This document shows positions 1 to 31,169 of a DNA stretch of 37,331 nt, piece after piece. The DNA is taken from positions 1-37,331 of IMG/VR virus record IMGVR_UViG_2537561506_000022; one strand, written 5' to 3'. Numbering within the stretch: position 1 is the first letter of the stretch; each line of letters starts with the position of its first letter. The translations under genes were made by a program, and so were the position numbers. This stretch comes from a virus. Lineage: Duplodnaviria > Heunggongvirae > Uroviricota > Caudoviricetes. The notes under the pieces are model-generated. The model did no database searches. It had not been told where the DNA came from and saw nothing but the letters and a program-made list of their open reading frames with translations.

Positions 1-1140
1 ATATGCGCCAGCACCTCGTATCATGGTGACAGTATTCTTAATCGTAATACCAGGGTCAACAATGAACACCCCCTCTGGTATAACAATCTCAGTTGGCAAC
101 GTAGCATCATCAATAGCCTTCTGAAACGCCGCTTTGTTCTGAGAACCGGTGTTGCCAACTTTAAATCCGTAGTCTGAAAGTGTCACCAAATCTACAGAAA
201 GTTTTTCATATACCGACATCGAGACGGCATCATTAAATTTAGGGGTATATGTAACTATTGAGGAGCCTTTATCTGTCTCTTGACTAATCAGGTCGCTCCG
301 CAACGATGCATCCCCTACAGATACCCAGGCACCAAGGGAAACCCCACCTGTTGATTCAGGGGTTGAATTCTCAGGAACATCTTTTGGTAAAGATCCATCC
401 CAACGGTAGTACTCGCCATTTCCATCAGGACGTTTCCAGTGAAGTGCCTGAAATCTAGTTGTTATTGAAGCACCATCCTGAAACGAATCAATAAGGGAAT
501 ATCCCCATAACCCACTACTTTCAGGATCAAGAAGAAGCGGTGATCCAGAATTATCAAAACTCAGTGTTTTATTCTTTCTCCCATCCGCATCAGGTAACTC
601 ATTTATAAACGATTCAGGTACTCTCAAGCTTCTGCTTAGGCTGGCACCAGAAAGAATATCAACATAATCTTTCGTTGCTGCGTCTTTCGGCCTGGATGGG
701 GCACGAAGATTACGAATATAGTTGTCCATTGCGTCGTAATAGTTAGCAGCAAATGACGGCTTACGTAGCGCCAGGCTAAACCAACTACGAACCTGCTGAA
801 TCAACATTGTCAACTTATCAAGCGCATCCTCATGCACCTCAGCAAAGAACTTACCCTGGTTACGGAGATCCGTTTCCTGCGTAACCGGCAATTCACGTGA
901 TATGGAAATCTGGTAACCATTAGCAAGAGCTGTTGCCAGTATTACATTACCACCTACATACCCACCTGCGCCGGTTACTGTGTAGTCAGTATCTAGCGTC
1001 AGAACAGTGATGTTATCGTTCAGGTCTACAACCTGGACTACCAGATCAGACTTCTTAAAAATCCTGAAGGTATAATGGAATGTCGTTGTAACACCGTTAC
1101 CGGTGTATTCGTTGTGGTCAACTTCGGTTGAGACCGTCAT
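1..1140 (-). CDS. Tail fibre/tailspike, N-terminal ~380 codons (T7 gp17-like adaptor domain); C-terminus lies beyond the window start
   Basis: Reverse-strand ATG at 1138..1140 with GGAG 7 nt upstream; N-terminus MTVSTEVDHNEYTGNGVTTTFHYTFRIF...DYTVTG resembles the T7 gp17 N-terminal domain; open frame continues to position 1. Not in ORF track because it is truncated. Confidence 0.75.
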   Translation of the reverse strand, partial: MTVSTEVDHNEYTGNGVTTTFHYTFRIFKKSDLVVQVVDLNDNITVLTLDTDYTVTGAGGYVGGNVILATALANGYQISISRELPVTQETDLRNQGKFFAEVHEDALDKLTMLIQQVRSWFSLALRKPSFAANYYDAMDNYIRNLRAPSRPKDAATKDYVDILSGASLSRSLRVPESFINELPDADGRKNKTLSFDNSGSPLLLDPESSGLWGYSLIDSFQDGASITTRFQALHWKRPDGNGEYYRWDGSLPKDVPENSTPESTGGVSLGAWVSVGDASLRSDLISQETDKGSSIVTYTPKFNDAVSMSVYEKLSVDLVTLSDYGFKVGNTGSQNKAAFQKAIDDATLPTEIVIPEGVFIVDPGITIKNTVTMIRGAGAY

Positions 1141-1244
1141 GTTAAATCTCCAGATAGTCGCAGCACCCGTTGCGCCGCATATCCGGTTATTCTATTACCT
1201 GAAAAACCACATATGGATATATAACCCATAAATACGAACAGATA

Positions 1245-1259
1245 TTACCTTTCAGGTGA
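1245..1259. promoter_or_regulatory. 15-bp palindrome TTACC-TTTCA-GGTGA (site a) in fibre / SOS-antirepressor divergent region
   Basis: Inverted repeat read directly; member of a family found at about 13 intergenic positions; preceded by an AACCACATA block also found at 21063 and 28142. Confidence 0.4.
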
Positions 1260-1296
1260 TTCGCAAAACGTGCTGGATAGCAAACAAATTATTTGA

Positions 1297-1316
1297 TACT
1301 GTATATTTATACAGTT
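1297..1316. promoter_or_regulatory. LexA (SOS) box
   Basis: tactgtatatttatacagtt = CTGT-N8(AT-rich)-ACAG, matching the E. coli LexA box consensus TACTGTATATATATACAGTA; sits about 20 nt upstream of the ATG at 1336. Confidence 0.7.
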
Positions 1317-1335
1317 ATTGCATGGAGAAGATAAG

Positions 1336-1593
1336 ATGCAGCAGTATCACTATCCACTGGAAGACGGATTTACCGAAAGGATTCACACGCCGGGAGGCGT
1401 CAGGTCACTGGTGGAGGGATCGCACTTGATGAAATTACTCCGGGATCTCGATAAGGATGGATTTAATGTCGATGGCCCACTTGCCGAACTGACTGCACTG
1501 ATTAACTACGTCACCAGCTCGCAGATGTCTATGCAGGATCTGCAAACACATCTCGACTATTGTGCCGAACAATTACGTAAACAAACCAGATAA
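1336..1593 (+). CDS. Small stand-alone antirepressor-like protein (homologue of the shared Ant C-terminal domain), probably SOS-controlled
   Basis: ATG at 1336 with GGAG at 1324-1327 (track ORF 1318 starts at TTG); 85 aa; about 45% identical to the C-terminal 65 aa shared by the three larger antirepressors (H-P-GV..L.E.S.LM.LL..L..DG..V.G..AELT...QTH..Y). Confidence 0.6.
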   Translation: MQQYHYPLEDGFTERIHTPGGVRSLVEGSHLMKLLRDLDKDGFNVDGPLAELTALINYVTSSQMSMQDLQTHLDYCAEQLRKQTR

Positions 1594-1611
1594 GGTTTGC
1601 AATTACCAAAA

Positions 1612-1655
1612 GGAGTGCTTATATTTACCTTTGCGGTAAATTTACATCGCACTCC
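1612..1655. repeat. 44-bp extended inverted repeat (GGAGTGC...GCACTCC) enclosing palindrome site b TTACC-TTTGC-GGTAA (1625..1639)
   Basis: Read directly: GGAGTGC at 1612-1618 pairs with GCACTCC at 1649-1655; the inner 15-mer matches the operator family. Confidence 0.45.
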
Positions 1656-1731
1656 TCTTGTGCCATAGTAATCGGGCACTGGCAAAATCCAGTGCCGGGA
1701 TTGGCGTCCCGGATTACTAAAAGGCGCATTC

Positions 1732-1752
1732 ACCGCGCAAGCGGTTTTTTTA
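1732..1752 (+). terminator. Intrinsic terminator (ACCGC-GCAA-GCGGT plus T7 run)
   Basis: 5-bp stem with GNRA tetraloop followed by TTTTTTT; lies between the small antirepressor gene and the Bro-N antirepressor gene. Confidence 0.5.
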
Positions 1753-1850
1753 TGCGTATAGCACGGCCACATTCGTATTATGGTGGGCTGTGTGGGGGCA
1801 CCGAAAGGTGCGCCGGGTCCTTTTAGCCGGTTACGCCAACCCTGCACAGT

Positions 1851-1883
1851 TCACCACCAACCGATTGGCGTCGGTAGTGGTGA
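1851..1883 (+). promoter_or_regulatory. Hairpin TCACCAC...GTGGTGA about 25 nt upstream of the Bro-N antirepressor start
   Basis: TCACCAC (1851-1857) / GTGGTGA (1877-1883) with inner ACCGA-TTGGCG-TCGGT; a related ATCACCAG-N7-CTGGTGAT element precedes the antirepressor at 35393. Confidence 0.35.
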
Positions 1884-1908
1884 TTAACCAGACTAAAAGG
1901 TAACCACT

Positions 1909-2604
1909 ATGACAGCTACAAAAAGCACGTCCATTTTTTCTTTCGAATCCCAAGCCGATATACGAGTAATCGTCATTAATGGTGAGCCATGGTTTATCGC
2001 TTCAGATGTTTGTCGGGCTATAGGCATAGCAAACCATCGAGATGCTGTTCGAAAACTTGATGATGATGAGAAGGGCGTCGCTTCAACCGACACCCCTGGC
2101 GGTGAGCAAGAATCGATCATCATCTCCGAGTCAGGCCTCTACACACTGATCCTCCGCTGCCGCGACGCAGTGACACCAGGCACTATCCCCTACCGCTTTC
2201 GTAAATGGGTTACAGGTGAGGTTCTTCCTCAGATCCGCCGCACCGGAAGCTACATTAAAAACTCGCTCCCGCAGGAAGAACGCATAAAGATGCTTGCCGA
2301 CCAGGTAGCCAGCGCCACGGCGTCAGCAGTGATGCAGGCGATGAAGATAGAGAACAAAACCTACAGTGCCCCGCTGAAGCCCGGCTACCGCAGCCTGATT
2401 CATTCTCCGTCTGGTGTTCTCGGCCTGACTGAGAACTCACTGCTGATGAATCTGCTGAACCAGTTACAGGAAGACGGGCATGATGTATCGGGCGCAGCGG
2501 CGGAGCTGACCACCATGTTCTGCTACATCGTCGGTGTGAGCAAATGCCTGCGTGATATCCAGACCCACGCGGAGTACATCAACGACAAGGCAGGGTTCTT
2601 CTGA
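1909..2604 (+). CDS. Phage antirepressor, Bro-N N-terminal domain plus shared C-terminal domain
   Basis: 231-aa ORF; N-terminus FSFESQADIRVIVINGEPWFIASDVCRAIGI is a Bro-N signature; C-terminal ~80 aa identical to the C-termini of ORFs 3681..4619 and 35363..36049. Confidence 0.8.
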   Translation: MTATKSTSIFSFESQADIRVIVINGEPWFIASDVCRAIGIANHRDAVRKLDDDEKGVASTDTPGGEQESIIISESGLYTLILRCRDAVTPGTIPYRFRKWVTGEVLPQIRRTGSYIKNSLPQEERIKMLADQVASATASAVMQAMKIENKTYSAPLKPGYRSLIHSPSGVLGLTENSLLMNLLNQLQEDGHDVSGAAAELTTMFCYIVGVSKCLRDIQTHAEYINDKAGFF

Positions 2605-2627
2605 CGGCGGCGGCACAGGGACGTGCC
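2366..2627 (+). repeat. Copy A of ~260-bp near-identical repeat (antirepressor C-terminal coding segment plus ~25 bp 3' flank)
   Basis: Near-identical to 35807..36071 (direct) and to the reverse complement of 3658..3920 (inverted); only a handful of substitutions seen by eye. Confidence 0.85.
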
Positions 2628-2668
2628 TTTAAATAATTCTGTACAGATTGCAGGTGAATAGCTTACTA

Positions 2669-2683
2669 TTACCTCACGGGTGA
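2669..2683. promoter_or_regulatory. Palindrome site c TTACC-TCACG-GGTGA upstream of the cargo cassette
   Basis: Matches the 15-bp palindrome family; intergenic. Confidence 0.35.
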
Positions 2684-2720
2684 TCCATAGCGATTAGGCA
2701 CCGATACAGGAGGAGCCCAC

Positions 2721-2753
2721 ATGAGAAAATTTGACGAGTACGAAGGCGTTTAA
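2721..2753 (+). CDS. Possible 10-codon leader peptide ORF (MRKFDEYEGV)
   Basis: ATG 5 nt after a strong AGGAGGAG Shine-Dalgarno; followed at 2773..2794 by a terminator hairpin and then the membrane-protein gene; attenuator-like layout. Confidence 0.25.
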   Translation: MRKFDEYEGV

Positions 2754-2772
2754 CATTCGGATAGTTTAATGA

Positions 2773-2794
2773 CGGGGCCATTAGGCCCCGTTTT
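2773..2794 (+). terminator. Hairpin CGGGGCC-ATTA-GGCCCCG plus TTTT (possible attenuator/terminator)
   Basis: 7-bp GC-rich stem followed by a short T run, located between the mini-ORF and the RBS/GTG of ORF 2813. Confidence 0.4.
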
Positions 2795-2812
2795 CATGTC
2801 TGGAGACAGTTT

Positions 2813-3657: not shown

Positions 3658-3920
3658 CACGTCCCTGTGCCGCCGTTCTGTCAGAAGAACCCTGCCTTGT
3701 CGTTGATGTATTCCGCGTGCGTCTGGATATCACGCAGGCATTTGCTCACACCGACGATGTAGCAGAACATGGTGGTCAGCTCCGCCGCTGCGCCCGATAC
3801 ATCATGCCCGTCTTCCTGTAACTGGTTCAGCAGATTCATCAGCAGTGAGTTCTCAGTCAGGCCGAGAACACCAGACGGCGAATGAATCAGACTGCGGTAG
3901 CCTGGCTTCAATGGATAACC
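3658..3920 (-). repeat. Copy B (inverted) of the ~260-bp antirepressor C-terminal repeat
   Basis: Reverse complement matches copies A and C; slightly more diverged at its 5' end. Confidence 0.85.
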
Positions 3921-4619
3921 ATAACATTTTGTCTGTGTTTTAATTGCCTCACGAAGCGCATCTAACATCTTGACTGCCACTTCATCATTCTCTGATGCAG
4001 ATCCAGCAGGGAGATACTCCCCTTCAAGCGGAACCCGAGCAACAAGAGACAACGCTTCGGCAAATTGATCTTCACCAATTTCTTTGTACGAACAGCCAAA
4101 ATGAGATTTCAGTGACGACCACATGGTGATCATCGCCTTAGCCTGTTTTTCTTTTGGCAGAGACTGACCGCGACTCATGACGAGTTGTTTAATGGCTTCC
4201 TGCTGTTCAGTTGTTATTTTACCCGGCAACGCCTTTTTAGCTTTGCGTGGGTTAACCACATGGCCTTTAGTCCAGTACTCGTAGAGCACATCGTCACACT
4301 CTTCCTGATACTGGATTACCTTGTCGCGGATTTCAGGGCGGACTTTGTTAGGGCTGATGCTGTTCAACCAAGCTGCCAATTTTCGTAAAGCCATACAAAT
4401 CATGGCTTGCACCCCACCGGCAGAAGGTATGGTGATTTCCACCATACCCTTCGAGAAGCGTTGAGAAATCTTCTTATGTTGAGATTTCCAGTCTAGCCCC
4501 ATTCCCTCAACGATAGGTTTCATTGGGGTATACGGTTCGCCGTTGTGATTGACAACATAAAGCTCTGCGCCGTGGAATGGCACGTTGATAGTAGATACTG
4601 CTGTTGCTATACTCGTCAT
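3681..4619 (-). CDS. Phage antirepressor (P22 Ant-like N-terminal region plus shared C-terminal domain)
   Basis: 312-aa ORF; position and orientation downstream of an Arc-like gene mirror the P22 immI arc-ant layout; C-terminal ~80 aa shared with ORFs 1909 and 35363. Confidence 0.75.
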   Translation of the reverse strand: MTSIATAVSTINVPFHGAELYVVNHNGEPYTPMKPIVEGMGLDWKSQHKKISQRFSKGMVEITIPSAGGVQAMICMALRKLAAWLNSISPNKVRPEIRDKVIQYQEECDDVLYEYWTKGHVVNPRKAKKALPGKITTEQQEAIKQLVMSRGQSLPKEKQAKAMITMWSSLKSHFGCSYKEIGEDQFAEALSLVARVPLEGEYLPAGSASENDEVAVKMLDALREAIKTQTKCYGYPLKPGYRSLIHSPSGVLGLTENSLLMNLLNQLQEDGHDVSGAAAELTTMFCYIVGVSKCLRDIQTHAEYINDKAGFF

Positions 4620-4668
4620 GTCGTTAATTCCTATACGTAGTTTTACGATACTGAAGCCCTGACGGTCT

Positions 4669-4682
4669 GGCCACCGTGGGGC
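4669..4682. promoter_or_regulatory. Palindrome GGCCACCGTGGGGC in the arc-ant intergenic region
   Basis: Shares the CCACCGTGGGG core with 4874..4888; a GAAGCCC/GGGCTTC hairpin is also present here. Confidence 0.35.
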
Positions 4683-4691
4683 TTCGCTGTT

Positions 4692-4859
4692 TTATGCCAC
4701 GCTATTCTTCTCACCAGTGAGTCCATACACTTTCCTCAGCTGATAGATAATCTCTGTATTGAACTTTCGGCATTCTTTTTCGCCATTTCTTTCAATAGCT
4801 AACTTCACATCGTCCGGAAAACGAACTCGTCGTTGACACATCTCTTTTGCTTTTTGCAT
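4692..4859 (-). CDS. Arc-like ribbon-helix-helix repressor
   Basis: ATG at 4857..4859 (reverse) with GGAG 7 nt upstream (track ORF extends to a GTG at 4880); RVRFPDDVK...NTEIIYQLRKV aligns with P22 Arc (NLRWPREV...NSEIYQRV). Confidence 0.55.
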   Translation of the reverse strand: MQKAKEMCQRRVRFPDDVKLAIERNGEKECRKFNTEIIYQLRKVYGLTGEKNSVA

Positions 4860-4873
4860 TTCATATCTCCTTA

Positions 4874-4888
4874 GCCCCACCGTGGGGC
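4874..4888. promoter_or_regulatory. 15-bp perfect palindrome GCCCCAC-C-GTGGGGC, candidate Arc/Mnt-type operator
   Basis: Sits next to the Arc-like RBS in the divergent arc/mnt control region; CACCGTG half-sites recur at 4899-4907 and, inverted, at 4926-4932. Confidence 0.45.
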
Positions 4889-4979
4889 AAAATAATTGTC
4901 ACACCGTGCGTCATTGATGTCAAGCACACGGTGAGGCATACTTCAATCATTGCAAGTAACTCAATATTTGGTGAAGAAC

Positions 4980-5411
4980 ATGAGCAGAGAAGATCCACAA
5001 CTAAGGATCAGACTTCCCGTCGAAGTAAAAGAAAAAATAGAAATTTCTGCAAAAGCCAATAAGCGATCAATGAACGCTGAAATAGTACAACGTCTTGACA
5101 CCAGCTTTCTGAAAGATATTCATGAAGATGACGTAATTTCTGCTTATGAAGCAAAAATCATTGCAAACAATGCACGACATGAAATATCAAATATTATTTT
5201 CAAAAGAACCTTTAATGAAATTAATAAGAAAATAACACTTGGACATACAAGTTTTTATATAAACCTTAATGACCTTGAACTGGAATCACTTGCAGATAAT
5301 GATTACCAGATCATCTTTGAAAAAACATTTAATAAGCTCAATGAACTAGGTTACATCATCTGTGAAAACTCATGGGATGCAGATGGTTTTGGAATTGAAA
5401 TACCTGAATAG
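4980..5411 (+). CDS. Mnt-like ribbon-helix-helix repressor with a ~60-aa C-terminal extension
   Basis: ATG at 4980 with GGTGA 5 nt upstream; SREDPQLRIRLPVEVKEKIEISAKANKRSMNAEIVQRL aligns closely with P22 Mnt (ARDDPHFNFRMPMEVREKLKFRAEANGRSMNSELLQIV). Confidence 0.7.
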   Translation: MSREDPQLRIRLPVEVKEKIEISAKANKRSMNAEIVQRLDTSFLKDIHEDDVISAYEAKIIANNARHEISNIIFKRTFNEINKKITLGHTSFYINLNDLELESLADNDYQIIFEKTFNKLNELGYIICENSWDADGFGIEIPE

Positions 5412-21451: not shown

Positions 21452-21528
21452 GTGGCATTAGCTCAGTTGGACAGAGCAACCGCCTTCTAAGCGGTTGGTC
21501 GCAGGTTCGAATCCTGCATGCCACGCCA
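21452..21528 (+). tRNA. tRNA-Arg (anticodon UCU), phage-borne
   Basis: 77-nt cloverleaf read by eye: acceptor GTGGCAT/ATGCCAC, D-arm AGCTC...GAGC, anticodon stem ACCGC/GCGGT with loop CTTCTAA, T-arm GCAGGTTCGAATCCTGC, discriminator G and encoded CCA. Confidence 0.9.
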
Positions 21529-30584: not shown

Positions 30585-31169
30585 ATGAAAAGTATCCAGG
30601 ACGTCCGCAGGCAAAATCTCAACGACTTGATCGACCGTGAATTCAATGGTGTTCAGACGCGGATGGCAGAAAAACTTGGAACTCAGGCAAATCTGGTAAA
30701 CCGCTGGGCTCTTGGCAAGAAGGTTATCGGCGACCAGGTTGCGCGAAAAATTGAAGCTGCCGCCAATAAACCCCGTAACTGGCTTGATATCGATCGCTCG
30801 CTTTCTCAGGAAGGTTTTCAGCCTGTCGGCCCAAGCGACATTGGTCAGCTGGCGGCTCACAACCTGGAACGCTGGATGAGCGAAAGCCGCGACCTTTCAA
30901 CACAGGGAAAACTTCACCGCGCATCCGGCGTCGCCCAGGTGACAATCAGCCGCCTGTTAAACAATGAGGTCAGCGTTTCCATTTCCACCCTGGAGAATGT
31001 TGCATCTGCATTCGGGCGTCACGGATATGAACTACTGATTCACCCGCACGACCCTGCAACTATCAACTATGACCGCTCGCGCTACGCATTATTACCTGAA
31101 ACCGAGAAAGCAAAGATCGAAAGTTACATTGAATTTGTCATCAACCAGAACGAAAAAAACAAACAATAA
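30585..31169 (+). CDS. Prophage repressor candidate: two XRE-type HTH domains, no S24 peptidase domain
   Basis: 194 aa; HTH-like segments QTRMAEKLGTQANLVNRW and SGVAQVTISRLLNNEVSVS; divergent from the Cro-like gene; followed by a strong terminator. Confidence 0.6.
   Translation: MKSIQDVRRQNLNDLIDREFNGVQTRMAEKLGTQANLVNRWALGKKVIGDQVARKIEAAANKPRNWLDIDRSLSQEGFQPVGPSDIGQLAAHNLERWMSESRDLSTQGKLHRASGVAQVTISRLLNNEVSVSISTLENVASAFGRHGYELLIHPHDPATINYDRSRYALLPETEKAKIESYIEFVINQNEKNKQ

Follow-up and report, generated by a model that had tools for sequence, protein, structure and literature searches.

What controls the Bro-N antirepressor gene in a 37,331-nt stretch of viral DNA (Caudoviricetes; analysed in its entirety and hereafter called the window), in which a spacer of about 300 bp (1594..1908) separates this gene from that of a LexA-controlled 85-aa protein (1336..1593)? 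A first-pass annotation of the window had taken the spacer for a structured non-coding segment, an attenuator or a small RNA comparable in role to sar of phage P22, and its guess that a small RNA controls antirepressor expression turns out to be right, given the matches to C4 and IsrK and the complementarities described below. The spacer is a complete antisense module of the P1/P7 immI type and holds no unknown attenuator; it is a clear, ordinary case of a known system, carried by a phiV10/epsilon15-like (Uetakevirus) prophage, and the mechanism is not new. The best explanation, in which we place considerable confidence, is that we are dealing with the control region of an isrK-c4-ant operon of this type, with C4 blocking translation of the Bro-N antirepressor; most likely, the downstream gene is kept untranslated by IsrK-like and C4-like RNA genes. 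The same or a similar element is found in 941 of the 5,426 complete E. coli genomes, and RefSeq annotates nothing over it among the E. coli matches listed. One of these genomes, that of E. coli SJ2D (NZ_CP074730), has a copy with 100% identity. The region can confidently be labelled with two ncRNA genes, four target sites and a probable operator (Table 1).

Two RNA genes in tandem upstream of the antirepressor

The Rfam covariance models of isrK and C4 match the spacer in tandem, both above their gathering scores (E ~1e-15 and 1e-13). The C4 model (RF01695) is matched in full (1-87, at 1776..1861) with 77.7 bits against a gathering score of 45 (E = 1e-13), and the c4-a1b1 model (RF03163) scores 45.1 bits at 1663..1715, slightly below its gathering score of 46.7. 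Folding, which had been proposed as a check along with the initial reading, agrees with these matches: for 1594-1925, z = -6.99, and none of 100 shuffled sequences is equally stable.

The upstream RNA (1676..1751) folds into hairpin 1, hairpin 2 with site a1 in its loop, a single-stranded segment with site b1, and a Rho-independent terminator, that is, the two 5' hairpins followed by a terminator that are typical of isrK (fold and terminator scan). Its stems are GGCACTGG/CCAGTGCC (1675-1682/1689-1696), CCGGGA/TCCCGG (1695-1700/1707-1712) and the outer TAGTAATCGGGCAC/GTCCCGGATTACTA (1666-1679/1706-1719). The two inner stems, together with the outer GTAATC/GATTAC, had been recognized before, and they are indeed present in the sequence, but they had been considered mutually exclusive. 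In fact, the inner stems share no more than 2 nt and form side by side in both the minimum-free-energy fold and the Rfam model of isrK, which makes them adjacent hairpins; as the two coexist in every fold and in the model, a classical attenuator, which had rested on their mutual exclusion, has to be rejected. The terminator with a GNRA loop is found where it had been described. The motif TTGGCG does recur (at 1701 and 1865, each one base away from the position given earlier), not as a shared loop motif, however, but as a duplicated target of the C4 a' segment, within the repeat GATTGGCGTC (1699-1708 and 1863-1872). A second repeat, ACTAAAAGG (1716-1724 and 1892-1900), and the largest structure of the spacer, the 77-nt stem-loop of C4 (1782-1858), had both been missed.

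The ends of C4 were set by alignment to the annotated C4 of P1 (48343..48419, also 77 nt), which places them at 1782 (GGU...) and 1858 (...CACC); by homology with P1, RNase P would excise this RNA from a longer transcript. The segment folds with -45.1 kcal/mol (z = -4.54) into a long closing stem around two hairpins, and compensatory (double) changes affect 11 of the 22 stem pairs across 22 homologues. A lack of conserved structure among homologues had been named as the observation that would speak against the original reading; the comparison strongly favours a conserved structured RNA. The signature of the C4 family is found here as well: the a' and b' segments are complementary to a2 and b2 of the downstream leader, where b2 lies over the ribosome-binding site, and the targets occur once more (a1, b1) upstream of c4.

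In the leader, the TCACCAC...GTGGTGA hairpin noticed earlier is confirmed and ends 25 nt upstream of the ATG at 1909. The 3' strand of the closing stem of C4 doubles as its 5' arm, an arrangement kept in 23 of 23 loci. The Shine-Dalgarno sequence of the antirepressor gene, AAAGG, lies 8 nt before the ATG and is covered by b2; in the homologues, the b2 helices comprise 8-12 bp and extend into a GGAGG or AAGG Shine-Dalgarno sequence. There is no icd-like ORF between b2 and ant, the antirepressor ATG directly following b2. The leader alone can pair UAGUGGU (1875-1881) with ACCACUA (1903-1909) beside the start codon, so that part of the control may be intramolecular.

Upstream of the two RNA genes, a 44-bp palindrome around an operator had been reported, and its GGAGTGC...GCACTCC arms are contained in a large palindrome with 12-nt arms (1607-1618/1649-1660, 92%) around inner arms (1620-1629/1635-1644). 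The window contains 9 copies of the operator motif where 1.04 would be expected (a 9-fold enrichment), pairs of such sites flank the CI-like HTH gene at 30585..31169, and in the homologues the half-sites are conserved while the central bases vary. The palindrome at 1624-1640 is probably bound by the CI-like repressor of the prophage; it adjoins the promoter, as Op51 does in P1. The -10 element of the upstream promoter-like site overlaps this palindrome, and the site may correspond to P51a, a promoter of P1 that is under repressor control. The transcription start predicted from the second promoter-like site (~1676) coincides with position 1 of the Rfam isrK match.

Table 1. Features of the antirepressor control region, in window coordinates
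Feature	Position	Strand	Evidence and remarks
Upstream promoter-like site TTGCAA-17-TATATT	1597..1625	+	candidate; consensus scan only, 9/12 positions
Operator-like palindrome TTTACC-TTTGC-GGTAAA	1624..1640	none	core of larger palindrome 1607..1660
Promoter-like site TTTACA-17-(TG)CATAGT	1641..1669	+	promoter scan; predicted start near 1676
IsrK-like small RNA	1676..1751	+	Rfam RF01394, 77.9 bits (gathering score 50)
a1 target site TTGGCGT, loop of IsrK hairpin 2	1701..1707	+	complementary to a' (1833-1839)
b1 target site CTAAAAGG	1717..1724	+	100% complementary to b' (1819-1826); covaries across loci
Intrinsic terminator ACCGC-GCAA-GCGGT, then T7	1732..1751	+	terminator scan; Rfam isrK match
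C4-type antisense RNA, predicted mature form of 77 nt	1782..1858	+	Rfam match 1776..1861
b', loop of C4 hairpin 2, CCUUUUAG (complementary segment CCTTTTAG)	1819..1826	+	complementary to b1 and b2
a', single-stranded ACGCCAA 3' of hairpin 2	1833..1839	+	complementary to a1 and a2
Leader hairpin TCACCAC/GTGGTGA, a2 in the loop	1851..1883	+	arms 1851-1857/1877-1883; a2, TTGGCGT at 1865-1871, pairs with a' (1833-1839)
b2 target site CTAAAAGG	1893..1900	+	100% complementary to b'; contains Shine-Dalgarno AAAGG
Bro-N antirepressor gene (regulated gene)	1909..2604	+	Pfam Bro-N, E = 2.5e-21

Concerted change of C4 and its target sites

Do the short complementarities between C4 and its putative targets hold beyond this prophage? 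We compared 23 loci, from P1, Gifsy-1, APSE-7, SfV, Stx phages, Hafnia, Klebsiella and relatives of this phage. The isrK-C4 tandem recurs in Gifsy-1, APSE-7, SfV, the Stx phages and the Hafnia and Klebsiella phages, and the scan with the Rfam models finds C4 plus c4-a1b1 in P1. Among the 23 loci there are 8 a-specificities and at least 15 b-specificities, and the upstream site, C4 and the leader site change together. The a1:a' and a':a2 helices are 98.4% paired, with 5 of 7 pairs compensatory (for a1:a', over 9 specificity rows), and none of 500 shuffles reaches the observed percentage paired or covariation score of the a sites. The b' loop occurs in at least 15 variants, each fitting its own targets, and a non-cognate target rarely equals the cognate one in pairing with a given b' loop (11 of 498 comparisons for the upstream site, 17 of 498 for the leader site). 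The figures for the a sites refer to positionally defined sites and formal pair counts, which replaced a longest-helix statistic (G:U allowed). That statistic discriminated poorly between cognate and non-cognate pairs, especially in the case of a'; the TTGGCGT type is common to most loci, and a class filter split near-identical strings.

The repeats between the IsrK region and the leader, which were found independently of C4, have their reverse complement in a' or b' of C4 in nearly every locus. Furthermore, all positions inside the helices that depart from Watson-Crick pairing are G:U (20 upstream and 28 in the leader), and b1 and b2 retain their pairing with b' even where the two are not identical (for example, CTACAGAGG/CTACAAAGG). 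Taken together, the last two observations point to pairing at the RNA level on this strand. Two short specificity helices that change freely are what would be expected of an immunity determinant under diversifying selection, and the specificity types yield a simple prediction as to which prophages can cross-repress each other's antirepressors.

Related systems and competing explanations

A c4 antisense RNA in the immI region of P1 and P7, with sites a1/b1 and a2/b2 and with icd-ant under its control, was reportedly described by Citron and Schuster in 1990. The GenBank annotation of P1 gives the order operator, promoters, a1, b1, c4 (77 nt), a2, b2 and target gene, and the window aligns to it feature by feature: both loci possess, in this order, a repressor operator (a probable one in the window), tandem promoters (predicted in the window), a1, b1, a terminator-like hairpin and a C4 of 77 nt, hairpin 2 of which holds b' in its loop and is followed closely by a'; in both, b2 overlies the Shine-Dalgarno sequence, the 5' arm of the a2 hairpin is the 3' strand of C4 (in P1, CCTGCCACC..TTGACAG..GGGTAGCAGG), and an antirepressor operon is targeted. 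According to the summary in PMC5320573, the P1 RNA is trimmed to ~77 nt by RNase P, which cuts at a GGT site; its b' loop blocks access to the ribosome-binding site, while a' contributes to specificity. As in the heteroimmunity of P1 and P7 (PMC5320573), the specificity is set by a few bases in a and b. In P1, an icd ORF lies between b2 and ant and has to be translated for ant expression, whereas in the window, which has no icd, b2 falls on the antirepressor gene's own Shine-Dalgarno sequence. The protein encoded is Ant1/2 in P1 and a Bro-N antirepressor here, and the host element is a plasmid prophage in the former case and an integrated epsilon15-like podovirus in the latter. Unlike in P1, the a1/b1 segment of the window has the two-hairpin-plus-terminator form of the Rfam isrK family, and the a/b sequences are TTGGCGT/CTAAAAGG as opposed to TTGACAG/GTTAGTG. 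The absence of an icd-like ORF was counted against the P1-type explanation, yet this ORF is a feature of the P1 operon rather than of the RNA family.

The second close relative is the isrK-orf45(STnc1160)-anrP locus of the Salmonella prophage Gifsy-1 (Hershko-Shalev et al., 2016; PMC4825925), with the same layout of promoter, terminator, C4-like RNA, leader hairpin and antirepressor. The a specificity is identical (TTGGCGT/ACGCCAA), and the spacing agrees within 1-2 nt (G28/G31 correspond to 1703/1706, and C159/C162 to 1834/1837). The base pairs validated in Gifsy-1, G28-C162 and G31-C159 (PMC4825925), map exactly onto a1:a', their counterparts G1703-C1837 and G1706-C1834 lying within the 7-bp a1:a' helix of the window, and the processed RNA STnc1160 is located where C4 is. 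Other traits that define IsrK of Gifsy-1 are its binding to Hfq and activation of the long form by the short one in trans. The b specificity differs (ATCACCG/CGGTGAT in Gifsy-1), and the Gifsy-1 promoter has no operator-like palindrome whereas that of the window has one. The alignment of P1, Gifsy-1 and the window makes IsrK and c4 parts of one widespread module.

So how would the module work? The present analysis establishes the family membership, the structure, the complementarities and their three-way covariation; where the following scheme invokes cleavage by RNase P, a block of translation, IsrK as a decoy and a repressor-bound operator, it draws on the experiments in P1 and Gifsy-1. Transcription would start near 1676, from a promoter that abuts the operator-like palindrome, to which the CI-like repressor would probably bind. 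Most transcripts would stop at the terminator (1732-1751), yielding a 76-nt IsrK-like RNA with a1 and b1; in Gifsy-1, the homologous terminator is read through by a fraction of the transcripts (PMC4825925). The read-through transcripts would carry C4, to be cut out by RNase P as in P1, and its a' and b' segments would pair with a2 and b2 in the leader of their own mRNA or in the leader of an mRNA made by a newly arriving phage of this type. Through its contact with b2 it would hide the Shine-Dalgarno sequence, so that C4 would repress antirepressor synthesis from 1909..2604 and lysogeny or immunity would be maintained. The a1/b1 copies would provide a second binding place for C4 upstream, and the short IsrK-like RNA, when abundant, would compete for C4 and thereby release antirepressor synthesis. 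Sites a1/b1 may thus serve as a decoy, but they may also act as a termination signal or as an aid to C4 maturation. Mutating a1 in cis raised basal expression in Gifsy-1 (PMC4825925), an effect that a pure decoy model does not predict and that is better accommodated if C4 bound to a1/b1 promotes termination, as in P4, or if a1 helps C4 to mature.

Control of transcription termination, the nearest supported version of the attenuator of the first-pass annotation, would make read-through into ant, rather than translation, the main output: C4 on the nascent a1/b1 would promote termination at 1732-1751 or at a Rho-dependent site downstream, in the manner of the P4 CI RNA with seqA/seqC. Translational repression by C4 in P1 is indeed said to cause premature termination, a result attributed to Biere et al. 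in 1992. Like the RNA of the window, the P4 CI RNA is processed from the leader of its own operon and pairs with one upstream and one downstream site; the outcome in P4 is termination, with no ribosome-binding site covered, and the likeness is one of logic only. The P4 RNA is cited by Hershko-Shalev et al. as a structural analogue of IsrK, IsrK in trans raised a transcriptional fusion 8-fold in Gifsy-1, where the authors themselves raise termination, and the derepression by a1 mutations in cis points the same way (PMC4825925), as does the position of b1, which ends 7 nt before the terminator stem. We nevertheless consider this reading unlikely, as the effect of IsrK in trans on anrP translation (139-fold; PMC4825925) far exceeds that on transcription, b2 covers the Shine-Dalgarno sequence in almost every locus, which is a hallmark of translational control, and no structure competing with the terminator was found in the folds of the region.

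The model published for Gifsy-1 invokes translation of 'orf45' and no processed antisense RNA, and does not mention C4 (PMC4825925). The IsrK sequences would pair in cis with the 'orf45' region and silence translation of the long transcript, short IsrK in trans would open the ribosome-binding site from which a small ORF upstream is read (in the window, 1780..1887, 35 aa), and translation of this ORF would switch on the antirepressor by translational coupling. Genetic and biochemical data back the model in Gifsy-1 itself (PMC4825925), and the window has an ATG at the equivalent position (1780), 105 nt from the predicted start, that opens an ORF crossing the a2 hairpin. Yet the translated 45-codon ORF coupled to the antirepressor start that goes with isrK is not found here: the ORF comprises 35 codons, and 21 nt separate its stop from the ant ATG, whereas the Gifsy-1 ORF ends on the anrP start codon (ATGA). 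Nor is the ORF conserved, given that it comprises 14-17 aa and ends inside C4 in 8 of the 23 loci, including the closest relatives of the window, has 31-45 aa in 6 and runs on in 9. Its start codon would be lost on cleavage at the predicted RNase P site (U1781/G1782), and the same region of Gifsy-1 itself scores as C4 (69 bits). Finally, double mutants that restore a1:a' are still 56- to 80-fold derepressed (PMC4825925), as would be expected if a':a2 pairing represses. We find the published model improbable for the window.

Two further proposals can be dismissed as extremely improbable. A cis-antisense RNA like P22 sar, on the opposite strand across the antirepressor leader, would have an analogous role, and there is a true sar match beside another antirepressor of the window (see below), but 1100..2800 contains no sar match even at E = 10, 1594..1908 has no minus-strand promoter-like site, and the covariation and G:U-compatible changes all fit plus-strand RNAs. 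In the immI region of P22, where sar, Arc and Mnt control ant (RF00262), a small RNA likewise limits antirepressor synthesis, but sar covers its target from the opposite strand, with no separate target sites, whereas the spacer RNA acts through short loop-target helices; the likeness in role drawn earlier therefore gives way to that with P1 c4, the regulator lying on the same strand, upstream of its target. Small proteins encoded by the spacer (e.g. 1557..1847 minus, 96 aa; 1692..1826 plus, 44 aa), with the hairpins incidental, would fit the open frames of 35-96 codons and the GenBank CDSs over the homologous region (SfV orf37, the Hafnia 'Ash family protein' and the Lys8385Vzw 'peptidase'), but the frames vary in strand, frame and length among close homologues, the 35-aa ORF gives no match in a Pfam search, and the substitution pattern is that of a paired RNA. 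The small ORFs of both strands were accordingly rejected, in line with the earlier statement that the spacer has no credible ORF, none being kept in the homologues.

Other antirepressor modules of the window

The C-terminal module of the Bro-N antirepressor is 42% identical to the LexA-controlled 85-aa protein and is common to the other two Ant proteins of the window, being invariant from Y9 of the aligned stretch. This suggests a broader scheme, to which we would give about an even chance, in which a single antirepressor 'warhead' has been placed on four inputs, sRNA-Xcc1 is a c4-like RNA, and IsrK and c4-a1b1 are one element, with 'orf45'/STnc1160 being C4. The 'warhead' may be the C-terminal module of ~78 aa that is invariant from residue 9 in three proteins and has a free-standing homologue in the fourth; the inputs may be a LexA box for the 85-aa protein (1336..1593), IsrK/C4 for the Bro-N protein, sar/Arc for a P22_AR_N protein and an sRNA-Xcc1-type RNA for an AntA protein. 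Should this scheme be correct, sRNA-Xcc1, which the literature consulted treats as an integron sRNA of Xanthomonas with an unknown mechanism, would act as a repressor in the manner of c4, with covariation among its loop and two target sites. Likewise, the identity of IsrK (Gifsy-1) with c4-a1b1 (P1), and of 'orf45'/STnc1160 with C4, would merge two literatures that are still treated separately in a 2025 review.

A real P22 immI-type system is present in the same window, with a genuine sar match (Rfam RF00262) at 4621..4688, an ant gene at 3681..4619 on the minus strand and an Arc-like gene at 4950..5411. The related element that had been noted before the distant antirepressor at 35393 exists too: the hairpin ATCACCAG...CTGGTGAT at 35341-35363 belongs to a second analogous module (35141..35392), which is built on an RNA of the sRNA-Xcc1 family. 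The two leaders (1851-1883; 35341-35363) do resemble each other, and the resemblance reflects a shared architecture: in both, the closing stem of the small RNA provides, with its 3' strand, the 5' arm of the leader hairpin.

Two RNA genes between the 85-codon gene and the Bro-N gene

The spacer at 1594..1908 folds (together with the sequence up to 1925) into a structure much stabler than that of shuffled sequence (z = -6.99), and the hairpins and repeats listed for it in a first-pass annotation are all present. The Rfam models identify an isrK match at 1676..1751 (77.9 bits, gathering score 50) and a C4 antisense RNA match at 1776..1861 (77.7 bits, gathering score 45), along with a c4-a1b1 match at 1663..1715 in a permissive scan (45.1 bits, gathering score 46.7). 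The transcription start predicted near 1676 coincides with position 1 of the isrK match. The window features were placed by alignment to the GenBank annotation of P1 (Table), from which it follows that the loop TTGGCG, correctly reported as recurring, is not simply a repeated loop but the duplicated a-target of C4. The hairpin that had been noticed 25 nt upstream of the ATG presents a2, and the 3' strand of the C4 stem serves as its 5' arm. Once this strand no longer holds GUGGUGA, the segment 1875-1881 (UAGUGGU) can pair with 1903-1909 (ACCACUA), adjoining the start codon; such intramolecular pairing may add a cis layer, a possible cis switch, and the ACCAC element near the start codon is absent from some homologues.

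Features of the spacer, its genomic setting and the distant antirepressor leader
Feature	Position	Remarks
Tail-spike or tail-fibre gene		upstream of spacer; minus strand
LexA box, near-consensus	1297..1316	TACTGTATATTTATACAGTT; precedes 85-codon gene
85-codon gene	1336..1593	upstream of spacer
Palindrome core	1624-1640	TTTACC-N5-GGTAAA; core of the palindrome first noticed
Sigma-70-like promoter	1641..1669	TTTACA-17-TG-CATAGT
a1	1701-1707	TTGGCGT, in loop of IsrK hairpin 2
b1	1717-1724	CTAAAAGG
GNRA-loop terminator	1732..1751	3' end of isrK-like RNA
Mature C4, predicted	1782-1858	77 nt, same as P1
b'	1819-1826	CCUUUUAG, in hairpin 2 loop
a'	1833-1839	ACGCCAA
a2	1865-1871	in loop of TCACCAC/GTGGTGA hairpin
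b2	1893-1900	includes Shine-Dalgarno AAAGG, 8 nt upstream of ATG 1909
Bro-N antirepressor gene	1909..2604	downstream of spacer
P22_AR_N antirepressor gene	3681..4619	minus strand
Other 17-bp operator-like sites	21114, 24274, 28121, 28183, 30466, 30514, 31226, 31288
Promoter of distant leader	within 35141..35392	TTGACA-18-CATACT
Hairpin then T-run	within 35141..35392
sRNA-Xcc1-family RNA	35262..35351	62.9 bits
AntA antirepressor gene	35393..36049

Could the spacer encode a protein instead? A frame starting with an ATG at the 5' edge of C4 is 35 codons long in the window and 45 in Gifsy-1; across the 23 homologous loci compared, it spans only 14-17 codons in eight and reads on in nine. Given this variation, and given that the other open frames are not kept among homologues, in agreement with the earlier judgement that the spacer holds no credible ORF, it is the RNA that is conserved. 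Deposited CDSs cross the isrK and C4 genes in SfV (orf37, 'immunity region'), in a Hafnia phage ('Ash family protein'), in Lys8385Vzw ('peptidase') and in locus L094, and these are probably over-called; in the SfV group, the C4-edge ATG happens to share its frame with the downstream gene.

Covariation of C4 with its targets

The isrK-C4 tandem is present in Gifsy-1, APSE-7 (the record of which already carries an annotation of this type), SfV, several Stx phages, and Hafnia and Klebsiella phages; about 80 relatives of the window phage were gathered from IMG/VR. The C4 stem shows compensatory changes in 11 of its 22 pairs (22 sequences). The 23 loci carry eight distinct a-sequences and at least 15 distinct b-sequences, and in nearly all of them the C4 segment fits both its upstream and its leader site, which likewise correspond to each other. 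A search made blind to C4 recovered the repeats common to the IsrK region and the leader, and their reverse complements fall in a' or b', so the complementarity argument is not circular. When the a-sites are placed by position, pairing reaches 98.4% for a1:a' and a':a2, with double changes in five of seven pairs; none of 500 shuffles reached the observed pairing or covariation score. For the b' loops, non-cognate targets pair as well as their own in only 11/498 and 17/498 comparisons. All non-Watson-Crick positions inside the target helices are G:U pairs, a signature of pairing at the RNA level. The b2 helices extend 8-12 bp into the Shine-Dalgarno sequence. The nearest relatives of the window phage alone comprise five specificity types, the pattern to be expected of an immunity determinant, as in P1 versus P7. 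The structure of the spacer is considered functional.

In three IMG/VR loci (L039, L047, L049), the loop of IsrK hairpin 1 (equivalent to window 1683-1688) is inverted, ATTTTG for CAAAAT, with the stem unchanged, which looks like a hairpin-loop flip; no complement of this loop was found in C4.

Comparison with P1 and Gifsy-1

The P1 record shows the order C1 operator Oc4, two promoters, a1, b1, 77-nt c4 RNA, a2, b2, icd-ant. Directly after b1, at 48285..48318, a hairpin and then a T-run (CCGCAGATTTCCGATATTGCGG TATTTTTGTG) occupy in P1 the position of the IsrK terminator; P1 may thus also make an IsrK-like short RNA. According to a secondary account, RNase P cuts P1 C4 at a GGT site, leaving about 77 nt, the ribosome-binding site is occluded by b' and specificity comes from a' (PMC5320573). 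Of the mechanisms considered, repression of antirepressor translation by C4 at a2/b2 is the best supported.

What a1/b1 do is less certain. In Gifsy-1, isrK-orf45-anrP is driven by the isrK promoter, the long RNA is not translated, and IsrK supplied in trans raises anrP translation 139-fold and transcription 8-fold (Hershko-Shalev et al., PMC4825925). This activation in trans fits a decoy role of a1/b1; derepression by a1 mutations in cis is better accommodated by a P4-like termination effect or a role in C4 maturation. The reported pairs G28-C162 and G31-C159 (PMC4825925) are, counted from the Rfam start, exactly a1:a' pairs (G1703-C1837 and G1706-C1834 in the window), and the 'orf45'/STnc1160 region scores 69 bits as C4. 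The double mutants remain 56- to 80-fold above wild type (PMC4825925); they restore a1:a' but not a':a2, and hence continued derepression is what the C4 model predicts.

The spacer element belongs to a system that has been known since 1990 (P1 c4) and 2016 (IsrK) and is in itself little new. Of moderate interest are the by-products: the proposed equation of IsrK with the a1/b1 segment and of 'orf45' with C4, a putative C4-like action of sRNA-Xcc1, and the possible wiring of a single antirepressor module to four inputs.

The prophage and its other antirepressors

The window is a phiV10/TL-2011b-like prophage (epsilon15-like, Uetakevirus), with 95-98% identity to those phages over 1250..2650; a tRNA gene lies within it at 21452..21525 (73.3 bits). 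The motif TTACC-N5/6-GGTAA, to which the palindrome core at 1624-1640 belongs, occurs nine times against about one expected (9-fold enrichment), in palindromes that are mostly paired, 48-62 bp apart, and flank a lambda-P-like replication gene as well as the gene for a CI-like HTH protein (30585..31169). These sites are probably operators of the prophage repressor. In homologues of the palindrome at 1624-1640, the half-sites are kept and the centre varies; we infer that the repressor would bind there, as C1 binds Op51 in P1.

The proposed link to the distant antirepressor leader is borne out, in that 35141..35392 has the same design as the spacer module. A 15-nt repeat (35177-35191 and 35369-35383) is complementary, in each copy, to 35316-35331 inside the sRNA-Xcc1-family RNA, the second copy overlying the Shine-Dalgarno sequence of the AntA gene, and the 12 different loops seen among IMG/VR relatives change in step with both sites. 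In the literature consulted, sRNA-Xcc1 is described as an sRNA of unknown mechanism. Three IMG/VR loci (L100, L156, L158) carry an isrK-C4 module upstream of AntA-type genes in place of the sRNA-Xcc1 module, and therefore RNA cassettes and antirepressor N-terminal domains are shuffled independently.

The three antirepressors differ in their N-terminal domains (Bro-N, P22_AR_N and AntA) but have in common a C-terminal module of about 78 aa, which shows no variation from Y9 of the aligned stretch onward. The 85-aa protein encoded downstream of the LexA box is a free-standing homologue of this module (37-42% identical). This looks like one effector module under four different controls. The P22_AR_N gene belongs to a P22 immI-like unit, with a sar RNA match at 4621..4688 (+) abutting its start (44.8 bits, gathering score 43), a small upstream ORF at 4692..4880 (-) and a divergent gene for an Arc-domain protein at 4950..5411 (+).
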